Virus record (IMG/VR): IMGVR_UViG_2548876939_000010
Strand: one strand, 5' to 3'
Length of the DNA: 2,378 nucleotides
Source of the DNA: a virus
Lineage: Duplodnaviria; Heunggongvirae; Uroviricota; Caudoviricetes
Shown here: in pieces, positions 1-2,378 of the stretch
How the letters are laid out: each line of letters starts with the position of its first letter
How positions within the stretch are numbered: position 1 is the first letter of the stretch
Translations under genes and position numbers: made by a program
Notes under the pieces: generated by a model
What the model was told of the DNA's origin: nothing
Database searches by the model: none
Seen by the model: the letters and a program-made list of their open reading frames with translations, nothing else

Positions 1-231
1 TCAGGAGTGATTTTCATTGTTCAACCGCCCCGCCCGCTTCGTCTTACGATATTCATCATAAACTTTGGGATCATACTGAAGCTCCCCGCCAGATGCCTCC
101 TGTAGACGCATCGCGCGACCTTCGGGAACTAAATCCCCTTTCCAGCTATAAAGCGAAGCCAAACGAATACCTGCTGCTTGTGCAAGTTTTGTTTTTGAAC
201 CGAAATACAAAAGAGCGTCAGTTTTAAGCAT
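1..231 (-). CDS. dicC: DicC, small Cro-like regulator (76 aa) of the prophage division-control switch
   Basis: Complete minus-strand ORF: ATG is the complement of 229-231, stop TGA is the complement of 1-3. The translation MLKTDALLYFGSKTKLAQAAGIRLASLYSWKGDL... matches E. coli DicC as I recall it. A Shine-Dalgarno AAGGTG (complement of 238-243) lies 6 nt upstream of the ATG. It is divergent from dicA, as in lambdoid immunity regions. Confidence 0.9.
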   Translation of the reverse strand: MLKTDALLYFGSKTKLAQAAGIRLASLYSWKGDLVPEGRAMRLQEASGGELQYDPKVYDEYRKTKRAGRLNNENHS

Positions 232-314: not shown

Positions 315-722
315 ATGGAAACAAAAAATTTAACTATCGGCGAACGCATTAGGTATCGTCGGAAAAACCTCAAACACACCCAAAGGTCTCTTGCTAAAGC
401 CCTGAAAATCTCCCATGTGTCTGTATCACAATGGGAACGGGATGATAGTGAACCTACAGGGAAGAACCTTTTTGCCCTCAGCAAAGTATTGCAATGCTCA
501 CCAACATGGATTCTATTTGGCGATGAAGACAAGCAACCAACACCACCTGTTGAGAAGCCAGTTGCCTTATCCCCCAAAGAACTAGAGCTCCTTGAGCTGT
601 TTAATGCACTGCCAGAATCAGAACAGGATACCCAGCTCGCCGAAATGCGAGCTCGAGTAAAAAACTTCAATAAACTCTTTGAAGAATTACTAAAAGCCCG
701 TCAGCGGACAAATAAAAGATAA
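315..722 (+). CDS. dicA: DicA, HTH (XRE/cI-like) repressor of the dicB operon, 135 aa
   Basis: ORF 315-722 translates to METKNLTIGERIRYRRKNLKHTQRSLAKALKISHVSVSQWERDD..., with a classic N-terminal helix-turn-helix signature (QRSLAKALKISHVSVSQWE). It matches E. coli DicA as I recall it in length and sequence. No alternative in-frame start preserves the HTH. Confidence 0.92.
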   Translation: METKNLTIGERIRYRRKNLKHTQRSLAKALKISHVSVSQWERDDSEPTGKNLFALSKVLQCSPTWILFGDEDKQPTPPVEKPVALSPKELELLELFNALPESEQDTQLAEMRARVKNFNKLFEELLKARQRTNKR

Positions 723-888: not shown

Positions 889-1044
889 ATGGATACTATC
901 GATCTTGGCAACAGCGAATCTCTGGTATGTGGCGTGTTCCCCAACCAGGACGGTACGTTCACCGCGATGACGTATACCAAAAGCAAAACGTTTAAAACCG
1001 AATCTGGAGCGCGTCGCTGGCTGGAAAGAAATTCAGGTGGGTGA
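889..1044 (+). CDS. ydfA: YdfA-like small protein (51 aa), first gene of the dicB operon
   Basis: ATG at 889 is preceded by GAGG at 880-883 with a 5-nt spacing. It translates to MDTIDLGNSESLVCGVFPNQDGTFTAMTYTKSKTFKTESGARRWLERNSGG with stop TGA at 1042-1044. The ORF track's GTG start at 835 has no ribosome-binding site and would add 18 unsupported residues. Length and sequence fit YdfA of the Qin prophage as I recall it. Confidence 0.8.
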   Translation: MDTIDLGNSESLVCGVFPNQDGTFTAMTYTKSKTFKTESGARRWLERNSGG

Positions 1045-1203: not shown

Positions 1204-1422
1204 ATGCAGAAACGAGAACCCGTCATCATCGCGCCAGACTATACCGATGATGAACTTTATGAGTGGATGCGCCAGAAAATTAATGCAGCGCAGGATCTGA
1301 AATGGGCCAATGAAGCCAGGGCTAAGCAGGCTGAAAATCTGTCCGCTCTGGAGCAGGATATCACTAATCTGGAAAAAGCAGCGACATTAAGCATTGCCAG
1401 AATGATTACATACCCGCGTTAA
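1204..1422 (+). CDS. ydfC: YdfC-like protein (72 aa), function unknown
   Basis: ATG at 1204 is preceded by GAGGA at 1193-1197 with a 6-nt spacing. It translates to MQKREPVIIAPDYTDDELYEWMRQKINAAQDLKWANEARAKQAENLSALEQDITNLEKAATLSIARMITYPR with stop TAA at 1420-1422. Length and position fit ydfC of the dicB operon. Confidence 0.85.
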   Translation: MQKREPVIIAPDYTDDELYEWMRQKINAAQDLKWANEARAKQAENLSALEQDITNLEKAATLSIARMITYPR

Positions 1423-1763: not shown

Positions 1764-1816
1764 ATTCTGGTGACATTTGGCGGTATCAGTTTTACTCCGT
1801 GACTGCTCTGCCGCCC
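1764..1816 (+). ncRNA. dicF: DicF small regulatory RNA (about 53 nt; antisense inhibitor of ftsZ translation)
   Basis: The sequence ATTCTGGTGACATTTGGCGGTATCAGTTTTACTCCGTGACTGCTCTGCCGCCC followed by a TTTTTT run is near-identical to DicF RNA as I recall it, with at most a couple of substitutions. It lies between ydfC and dicB, as in the K-12 operon. The ends are defined by processing and termination, so the boundaries are approximate to a few nt. Confidence 0.85.
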
Positions 1817-1822
1817 TTTTTT
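1779..1822 (+). terminator. Intrinsic (Rho-independent) terminator forming the DicF 3' end
   Basis: GGCGG at 1779-1783 pairs with CCGCC at 1811-1815, with inner pairing CAGT at 1787-1790 against ACTG at 1802-1805. A T6 run follows at 1817-1822. It must be leaky, because dicB and ydfD lie downstream in the same operon. Confidence 0.6.
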
Positions 1823-1827
1823 AAAAG

Positions 1828-1984
1828 TGAATTTTGTGATGCGGTGAATGCGGCTCAGCGCACGCGGAACAGTTAAATCGGTAAAGCGGTCATTTGCTGA
1901 GTAACGAGAATGCTCTGTATCCGGCGTTAATTGTTAACTGGTTAACGTCACCTGGAGGCACCAGGCACCGCATCACAAAATTCA
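1828..1984 (+). repeat. Long-range 19-bp perfect inverted repeat (arms 1828-1846 and 1966-1984) bracketing the dicF-dicB spacer; candidate RNase III-type duplex
   Basis: Seen directly: TGAATTTTGTGATGCGGTG (1828-1846) is the exact reverse complement of CACCGCATCACAAAATTCA (1966-1984). In RNA it extends to 21 bp with a G-U and an A-U pair (1826-1827 with 1985-1986). The upstream arm starts 6 nt after the DicF T-run; the downstream arm ends 5 nt before the dicB Shine-Dalgarno. Confidence 0.6.
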
Positions 1985-2001
1985 TTGTTGAGGACGCGAT
2001 A

Positions 2002-2190
2002 ATGGAAAAGTTATCATGTAATGCCAGCACGTCTGAACTTCGTTTCGAAATTGGCGTTATCACTGGAGACAAAACATTTATTGAAGACGCCATTAAGCAG
2101 AGAAAACTCGAGCAGGACCTGTTAAATGAAGTATGCATTCCTTCAATGCTGGCTCGTCTGGACCTGCTGCAAAAAGGATATAAACAATGA
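2002..2190 (+). CDS. dicB: DicB-family cell-division inhibitor (62 aa; MinC-dependent inhibitor of FtsZ ring formation)
   Basis: ATG at 2002 is preceded by GAGGA at 1990-1994 with a 7-nt spacing. It translates to MEKLSCNASTSELRFEIGVITGDKTFIEDAIKQRKLEQDLLNEVCIPSMLARLDLLQKGYKQ with stop TGA at 2188-2190. It has the same 62-aa length and operon position as K-12 DicB and shares recognisable blocks (FEIGV, EDAI, RK, LLN, SMLARL, KG..Q), but appears substantially divergent. The ORF track's upstream TTG extension from 1894 has no ribosome-binding site and is rejected. Confidence 0.8.
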   Translation: MEKLSCNASTSELRFEIGVITGDKTFIEDAIKQRKLEQDLLNEVCIPSMLARLDLLQKGYKQ

Positions 2191-2378
2191 ATACAACATT
2201 TGCACTCGTTCTGACAGTTTATCTTGTTTCCGGCGAATCTCTTGAGCTGGTGACTGGCTTATACGGTTCAATGAAAGAATGCATGGCTGCAGCAGCAGAA
2301 CAAAAAATTCCCGGTAACTGTTATCCGGTAGATAAAACTACTCACACTAATAATAACGAAATACCGGCAGGACTTTAA
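2187..2378 (+). CDS. ydfD: YdfD-like small protein (63 aa) with a hydrophobic N-terminal segment; K-12 YdfD is reported to be lytic when overexpressed
   Basis: ATG at 2187-2189 overlaps the dicB stop at 2188-2190 (ATGA), with AAGGA at 2174-2178 upstream. It translates to MNTTFALVLTVYLVSGESLELVTGLYGSMKECMAAAAEQKIPGNCYPVDKTTHTNNNEIPAGL with stop TAA at 2376-2378. The N-terminus TFALVLTVYLVSG is consistent with a membrane-associated segment. It sits at the position of ydfD in the K-12 dicB operon. Confidence 0.8.
   Translation: MNTTFALVLTVYLVSGESLELVTGLYGSMKECMAAAAEQKIPGNCYPVDKTTHTNNNEIPAGL

Follow-up and report, generated by a model that had tools for sequence, protein, structure and literature searches.

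What does the long inverted repeat between dicF and dicB do? The prophage products DicF and DicB block division of the host cell and change its uptake of sugars, and in EHEC they feed into the control of virulence; the amounts of both depend on the termination and cutting of the operon transcript. We analyzed a stretch of 2,378 nucleotides (the window) that holds this repeat. The original prediction, made from the sequence alone, was that the repeat forms an RNA duplex that is processed by RNase III. We find that the duplex is almost certainly the RNase III cutting site that was reported for this prophage operon in 1990. Judged by sequence and predicted structure, it is also the lengthened closing helix of an STnc100-like RNA module of phages.

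The open reading frames and the matches to Pfam and Rfam show the window to be a Qin-type dicC-dicA-ydfABC-dicF-dicB-ydfD locus from an EHEC strain (Table 1). The DicF match (Rfam RF00039, at 1765 to 1816) has 77 bits, as compared to a gathering score of 48. The spacer between dicF and dicB is 185 nt long. The Shine-Dalgarno sequence of dicB is separated from the start codon by 7 nt, between A1994 and the ATG at 2002, and the end of dicB overlaps the start of ydfD by ATGA (2187 to 2190). From 1760 to 2010, the window has the same sequence as E. coli O103 strain RM8385 (100% identity), and its identity to K-12 is about 88%; relatives of this region are present in 4,642 of 5,426 complete E. coli genomes.

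Around dicA there are three TGTTAGCCATG-like copies (247 to 262, 758 to 773, and 793 to 808), and the copies that flank dicA are partly inverted (249 to 264 with 793 to 808, 94%). All three are expected to be operators for DicA/DicC, located at the divergent promoter of dicC and at dicBp. Also, a 98-amino-acid open reading frame with a TTG start (1894 to 2190) is an in-frame upstream extension of dicB, and it spans the spacer's 3' half, in which the 3' arm of the repeat lies.

Table 1. Features of the 2,378-nucleotide window and the basis for each
Feature	Positions	Strand	Basis
dicC, P22 Cro-like	1-231	-	ORF listing, Pfam
dicA, HTH_3 / CI repressor	315-722		Pfam
ydfA, DUF1391	889-1044		Pfam
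ydfB and ydfC	1204-1422		ORF listing, Pfam
DicF sRNA with terminator (53-nt form, 1764-1816)	1764-1822	+	Rfam match and fold
DicF terminator hairpin	1779-1785/1809-1815 and 1787-1791/1801-1805	+	predicted fold
DicF terminator U-run (T-run in DNA)	1817-1822	+	
Distal weak extension of 5' arm, UUUUUAA, with terminator U-run	1818-1824	+	in minimum-free-energy fold
5' arm of 21-bp closing helix (perfect over 19 nt, 1828-1846)	1826-1846	+	pair probability 0.78-1.0; covariation
Putative RNase III cut in 5' arm	1837-1838	+	equivalent of K-12 72-nt DicF 3' end
Structured core	1847-1965	+	predicted folds, RNAalifold, sub-threshold STnc100 match
Core: AAU junction, then small hairpin	1850-1865	+	predicted fold
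Core: variable stem	1866-1922	+	predicted fold
Core: hairpin A, then single A1950	1923-1932/1940-1949	+	fold; compensatory changes
Core: hairpin B, loop AGGCA	1951-1955/1961-1965	+	fold; compensatory changes
3' arm of 21-bp closing helix (perfect over 19 nt, 1966-1984)	1966-1986	+	repeat search, fold, covariation
Predicted partner cut in 3' arm	1976-1977	+	double-cleavage geometry
UUGAGGA with dicB Shine-Dalgarno GAGGA (1990-1994)	1988-1994	+	read from sequence; directly 3' of helix
dicB, 62 amino acids, ATG at 2002	2002-2190	+	Pfam PF05358 DicB, 7e-39
ydfD, DUF1482	2187-2378		Pfam, 2.8e-19

On a scripted check, 1828 to 1846 (TGAATTTTGTGATGCGGTG) is the exact reverse complement of 1966 to 1984, with 119 nt between the two arms, just as had been described. 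A search for inverted repeats gave somewhat longer arms with the same gap (1823 to 1846 and 1966 to 1989; 24 nt, 92% complementary). In RNA, the pairs G1827-U1985 and A1826-U1986 extend the perfect repeat outward to 21 continuous base pairs, one of which is G-U. In the predicted fold, these are followed by a mismatch (A1825/G1987) and then by seven weaker pairs (1818 to 1824 with 1988 to 1994). The original prediction was also accurate about the placement of the arms, just after the T-run of the DicF terminator and just before the Shine-Dalgarno sequence of dicB.

A perfect duplex of this size was said to be very unlikely by chance, and two estimates agree: across 300 dinucleotide-preserving shuffles, with gaps of up to 400 nt allowed, the longest perfect inverted repeat was 8 to 14 nt and never 19, and the analytic expectation for a 19-bp repeat is about 3.5e-6. 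Folding 1760 to 2010, which had been proposed as a check, gave a minimum-free-energy structure in which exactly this helix closes the spacer (z = -4.45; none of 200 shuffles was as stable). In the wider context of 1700 to 2100, the 21 pairs have probabilities of 0.78 to 1.0. The window also contains a perfect inverted repeat of 10 nt (1980 to 1989, ATTCATTGTT, and 2183 to 2192, AACAATGAAT), that joins the dicB leader, and part of the 3' arm, to the overlap between the dicB stop and the ydfD start. This one may be due to chance, because its length is within the range of the shuffled sequences.

Is the duplex cut by RNase III? Two forms of DicF that differ in their 3' ends are described in papers citing the 1990 study of Faubladier, Cam and Bouche: the 53-nt form results from Rho-independent termination, and the 72-nt form is made by RNase III from full-length dicBF transcripts (PMC5069750, PMC9438474). 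We located the second end in a K-12-type locus (L001), whose record coordinates coincide with those of MG1655 at DicF (5' end at 1649382). Counting 72 nt from the 5' end of DicF leads to ...GUGAAUUUUGU, at nucleotide 10 of the 19-nt 5' arm; here, 72 nt is a gel size from K-12, given in secondary citations, with a leeway of 1 to 2 nt either way. At that reported size, the RNase III-dependent end lies inside the helix. The equivalent position in the window is between 1837 and 1838. The long form of DicF would then have 74 nt here, since the T6A4 tract of this strain exceeds the T5A3 tract of K-12 by 2 nt. This agrees with the earlier suggestion that cleavage defines an alternative 3' end of DicF on read-through transcripts, insofar as the cited size is accurate.

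The abundance of RNA at the site in vivo also depends on rnc. At position 1649470, described as "intergenic dicF-dicB" and flagged as a known site, there were 0 and 0 reads in the wild type versus 26 in an rnc mutant, where the 26 reads are unstranded and the position is a peak in the coverage ratio in K-12 rather than a mapped end (Gordon et al. 2017, PMC5371410 Table S1). When mapped on the K-12 locus, 1649470 is 8 nt 3' of the 5' arm, within the spacer that the duplex encloses. A review lists the dicA-dicF-dicB intergenic region among the classical RNase III substrates. As for size, a stem substrate of RNase III has a helix of about two turns (at least 20 bp), and the window has 21 continuous pairs of high predicted probability, so the duplex is of the typical size that was claimed for it. 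As a rule, the positions between staggered RNase III cuts in vivo are paired, usually with at least one G-C pair (PMC6212723); if the 72-nt size is exact, then the pairs between the cuts that we propose are G1836-C1976 and U1837-A1975, which fits this rule. In the literature that we searched, we did not find a mapped 5' end of the dicB mRNA inside the 3' arm. All of the experimental data about RNase III at this operon are from K-12. Unlike the perfect helix of the window, the one in K-12 contains two neighboring G-U pairs (GAUGUGGUG with CACUGCAUC). Together with the covariation described below, the end of the 72-nt DicF and the rnc-dependent reads support the original prediction that the duplex is an RNase III substrate.

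A different RNase III cut in this operon has been studied more. It forms the 5' end of a 190-nt precursor of DicF, "between positions 813 and 814" (PMC10448788), which maps to about 1626/1627 in the window. This is in the 3' arm of an upstream stem, which is long and irregular (about 1553 to 1638, with an inverted repeat of 1561 to 1573 and 1619 to 1631; z = -3.2). Therefore, two RNase III-type stems flank DicF.

Very probably, then, the helix forms on read-through transcripts and is cut by RNase III, which makes the long 3' end of DicF and severs dicB-ydfD from the RNA upstream. The steps would be as follows. Some transcripts of the dicBF operon would read through the DicF terminator, and in the resulting RNA, 1826 to 1846 would pair with 1966 to 1986 over about two turns, enclosing the structured 119-nt spacer. 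RNase III would make a staggered double cut near the middle of the helix, at about 1837/1838 and 1976/1977; the partner cut is placed by applying the geometry of a 2-nt 3' overhang to the cut at 1837/1838. The 5' product would be the long form of DicF (72 nt in K-12), whose end would lie slightly beyond the terminator hairpin, up to which it could be trimmed. On the 3' side, the cut would leave a dicB-ydfD mRNA that starts near A1977 and has about 25 nt of leader. The core that is cut out, of about 139 nt, would be degraded: the zero coverage of the spacer in the wild type suggests that it is degraded rather than kept. We infer where exactly RNase III cuts in this strain, that it also cuts the 3' arm, and any effect on the translation or stability of dicB.

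The RNA between the arms resembles a known family. Using cmscan, 1830 to 1979 matched STnc100 (RF02076) with 33.6 bits and E = 5.2e-5, which is below the gathering score of 47. The match covers positions 21 to 154 of the 206 in the model; the 3' extension (155 to 206) is unmatched. From the cmscan alignment and a family alignment of 178 unique cores, the shared core comprises innermost pairs of GGUG with CACC, a GGUGAAU junction, a small G+C hairpin, a variable region, and a CCNGG-AGGCA-CCNGG hairpin. The element is not a free-standing sRNA gene with its own 3' extension; it runs straight into the ribosome-binding site of dicB. A 2026 preprint linked STnc100 to the Hfq-associated PasD sRNAs of prophages, and it does not mention dicF or dicB.

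Between strains, the variable stem is exchanged as a whole (1878 to 1915): the window, L003, and L004 share one version, while K-12 (L001) and most of the dicB loci have another (ACCAAAAACAGUGUUAUGGGUGGAU). The flanking helices are unchanged around it, which suggests that the variable stem is a tolerated or swappable domain.

The helix was kept in every one of the E. coli loci that we examined, which were picked by BLAST similarity alone. Besides the two G-U pairs of K-12, the helix has one G-U pair in loci L003 and L004 and a single A-C mismatch in locus L006, and in the Rac-type loci the stem is longer still and has a bulge of one base. For a wider search, we scanned viral and genome collections for a motif from the 3' part of the core (CACCNGGAGGCACCNGGCACC), which excludes the outer arms. 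This identified 240 loci in phages and prophages of Enterobacterales, including 194 unique copies with GGTGAA upstream. We described each closing stem by the length of its near-continuous helix; this replaced the count of pairs in minimum-free-energy mini-hairpins, which failed to tell true from mismatched arm partners. The lengths are bimodal: 168 unique copies have stems of 4 to 13 bp, and 26 have stems of 18 to 28 bp. The short-stem copies are bona fide members of STnc100 (48 to 165 bits). Among the long-stem loci, L001, L007, L008, L140, L146, L183, and L201 had no STnc100 match at the gathering score.

The two classes have different neighbors. A Shine-Dalgarno sequence and an open reading frame follow shortly after 25 of the 26 long stems (at 7 to 22 nt in 22 cases and at 35 and 51 nt in the other two) and after 26 of the 168 short stems. 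Upstream of most of the long-class copies there is a DicF-like terminator, and its U-run is the distal part of the 5' arm. The long class includes dicB loci, Rac-type kilR loci, loci with a Rha-family gene, and loci from Lelliottia, Scandinavium, Buttiauxella, and Klebsiella. In the Qin, Rac, Lelliottia, and Scandinavium prophages, the module lies within the leftward early operon, with the CI-like repressor on one side and the recE/exonuclease genes on the other; it is also found in phage genomes such as mEp460, Rac-SA53, and Stx phages. We did not find a Pfam family for KilR or for the downstream open reading frames of L140, L183, and L070.

Across the long class, the sequences of the arms vary and their complementarity is maintained. 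For instance, the arms of the Lelliottia locus L140 (AAGCAGGUUUUAAGGUGUGGUG and CACCACACCUUAAAGCCUGCUU) are very different in sequence from those of the window and form 22 bp, and the Klebsiella locus L201 has 18-bp complementary arms of very different sequence as well. Scandinavium L146 and Buttiauxella L183 also have differing arms that are still complementary. For the 26 distinct long-class sequences, the RNAalifold consensus recovers the 21-bp helix along with the inner hairpins. Within the helix columns, 98.5% of the cells form standard pairs, which is an inflated percentage because these 26 sequences were chosen for a long stem. The compensatory changes and the bimodal lengths are independent of that selection. 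Both sides have changed in 10 of the 21 pairs (24 cells), which none of 500 column shuffles matched, and if the partners are slid by 1 to 3 columns, then pairing falls to 34 to 53%. Thus, the conservation and covariation of both arms, which had been put forward as the critical check, are borne out. Furthermore, the helix has about 39 G-U cells versus 5 A-C cells across the 26 loci. G-U is far above A-C, and therefore the selected structure is the RNA of the + strand, not the DNA and not an opposite transcript.

Several individual loci bear mention. In the Rac-type loci (L007, 1543 to 1701, and L008, 1507 to 1675), the module precedes kilR and has a 28-bp stem with one bulged base, which runs from the U-run of a DicF-like terminator to UAAAAA, just before the Shine-Dalgarno sequence of kilR. 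L007 also has a DicF homologue above the Rfam threshold (53.8 bits). In the literature that we searched, there was no report of the processing of kilR by RNase III. L009 (1501 to 1621) has a copy of the core inside a tRNA cluster of a 120-kb linear phage-plasmid; its closing stem is 9 bp (AUUGCGGUG with CACCGCAAU), and two compensatory pairs distinguish it from the stem in the window. Phages P7, D6, and RCS47 also match the core. Bona fide STnc100 occurs in tandem arrays of 2 to 5 units that are interleaved with tRNA genes (L021, L031, L053, L086, and L209), and isrI adjoins some of these arrays (L086 and L133). Finally, L010 (1501 to 1549), which is before a Rha-family gene, has lost the 5' arm and retains only the 3' arm and the core's 3' half. 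This truncation is probably a recombination breakpoint within the module.

We considered other explanations for the long stem. The stem might mainly gate the translation of dicB, which would be activated when RNase III cuts the stem or when the stem is unwound, as in the lambda N leader; the 3' end of DicF would then be a by-product. Between the helix and GAGGA there are 3 nt, and in the distal extension UUGAGGA is predicted to pair with the U-run of the terminator. In the fold of 1764 to 2040, the Shine-Dalgarno bases have a probability of being unpaired of 0.02 to 0.18, versus 0.86 to 0.89 for bases 1991 to 1993 in the isolated 3' cleavage product. The genes that closely follow nearly all of the long stems also fit with gating. 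However, the pairs between the U-run and the Shine-Dalgarno sequence reach probabilities of just 0.11 to 0.39 in the context of 1700 to 2100, the Shine-Dalgarno sequence is just outside the stem in kilR-type loci, and the tail of DicF and the leader of dicB could stay annealed after cleavage (predicted ddG of -11.5 kcal/mol). Given these predicted structures, an effect of the stem on dicB translation is plausible. We view gating as the main role of the stem as quite possible, if somewhat short of probable; it is compatible with processing by RNase III and does not exclude it. Another proposal is that the stem serves for excision, as at the 16S and 23S rRNAs, and that the core of about 139 nt is released as a stable STnc100/PasD-like sRNA, so that the operon would have three products. 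The core is a homologue of STnc100, and RNAs related to it have been annotated as sRNAs of prophages that associate with Hfq; in addition, its hairpins covary, and once excised it is predicted to be stable (a 9-bp closing stem and -53.5 kcal/mol). However, the reads from the spacer, which were absent from both wild-type replicates and present in the rnc mutant, are the opposite of what accumulation would give. Also, the core lacks the 3' extension of STnc100, and the literature that we searched does not describe an sRNA from the dicF-dicB spacer. We consider a stable sRNA to be unlikely.

Could the long stem be unrelated to RNase III? The element is placed like a 5' leader, with its P1 helix adjoining the Shine-Dalgarno sequence; the 3' half of the core has two stem-loops that are one base apart; and the loop sequences of the core are strongly conserved. 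These features are reminiscent of a put-like processive antiterminator or a riboswitch-like leader, in which case the long stem would be a plain P1 helix. However, the dependence of the region on RNase III is documented. We rejected a put-like antiterminator because the search of phages found no similarity to HK022 and because the element is downstream, not upstream, of the terminator. A riboswitch-like leader is unlikely because most members of the family are in tandem arrays beside tRNA genes, mostly without a Shine-Dalgarno sequence and open reading frame close downstream. Overall, we judge a leader of either kind to be very improbable. The repeat might instead act in the DNA, as the terminal inverted repeats of a MITE or as a palindrome that binds a protein. 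It does look like a MITE, in that a 157-bp unit has inverted repeats of 19 to 24 bp at its ends and is present in several places per genome (median 2, up to 9). However, there is no target-site duplication at its boundaries (AAAAG/TGAA... and ...TTCA/TTGTT), all of the copies that we examined are in the same syntenic slot, and the arms vary by compensatory substitution instead of having a fixed sequence. The covariation, the excess of G-U over A-C, and the absence of a target duplication led us to reject this explanation, and we give it almost no credence.

Returning to the processing of read-through transcripts by RNase III, what is new? Cutting by RNase III between dicF and dicB has been known in substance since 1990, and because the site is not new, the original prediction rediscovered it. 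Two points were not found in the literature that we searched: the placement of the site on a covarying 21-bp helix, and the identity of this helix as the lengthened closing stem of a module like STnc100, which recurs before dicB, kilR, and other small genes. Placing the RNase III event on this helix gives the exact nucleotides to mutate. Because the same long-stem version precedes other small genes, the stem most likely serves to couple read-through both with processing and with expression or decay of the gene downstream. The presence of the module before kilR and other small genes suggests that such prophage genes share a form of post-transcriptional control, and it connects the STnc100/PasD family of RNAs to a defined processing event. 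More tentatively, the dicF-dicB duplex could be one case of a conserved "long-stem" variant of STnc100/PasD in the lambdoid prophages of several enterobacterial genera. These prophages would have lengthened its closing helix to a size that RNase III cuts and would have positioned it after a DicF-like terminator and before small genes (dicB, kilR, rha, and others), of which some are toxic. As a leader gated by RNase III, it would tie read-through of the terminator to whether the message for the cell-division inhibitor is expressed or decays, and the core might be released as an sRNA. We consider this broader proposal to be possible but somewhat unlikely. The literature that we searched contains no description of such a variant.

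How does the helix compare to known systems? The RNase III site of the K-12 Qin prophage is in the orthologous locus, which is 88% identical, with the arms at the same positions and the 72-nt end inside the 5' arm. The window differs in having a perfect helix, 2 more nucleotides in the T/A tract, and another sequence for the variable stem. The core architecture of the module is that of STnc100 (RF02076)/PasD, and the hosts are alike, namely lambdoid and P1-like phages of Enterobacterales. However, bona fide copies of STnc100 are in arrays beside tRNA genes and have stems of 4 to 13 bp, whereas the stem in the window is 21 bp (28 with the extension) and is before a coding gene.

In the leader of phage lambda N, RNase III cuts a stem, which was proposed to relieve a structural inhibition of translation. 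As in the window, a long stem in the leftward early operon of a lambdoid phage is directly upstream of a gene's ribosome-binding site. However, the stem of lambda N is a local hairpin, while the dicF-dicB helix is long-range and encloses an RNA with several hairpins, and we found no relationship between their sequences. An RNase III-sensitive stem in the lambda N leader was reportedly described by Kameyama et al. in 1991. The stems of 16S and 23S rRNA are similar in that long-range complementary segments bracket a structured RNA. They are cut on both strands with a 2-nt stagger, and a double cut of this kind is what we propose for the dicF-dicB helix. The enclosed RNA is different: at dicF-dicB it is 119 nt, and it seems to be degraded rather than kept. 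Lastly, RNase III also acts at sib of phage lambda, on transcripts that read through in a leftward prophage operon, and the site determines what becomes of a neighboring RNA. At sib, the RNA affected is the int message upstream, which becomes exposed to 3' exonucleases, whereas at dicF-dicB, the terminator hairpin of DicF should protect the upstream product.
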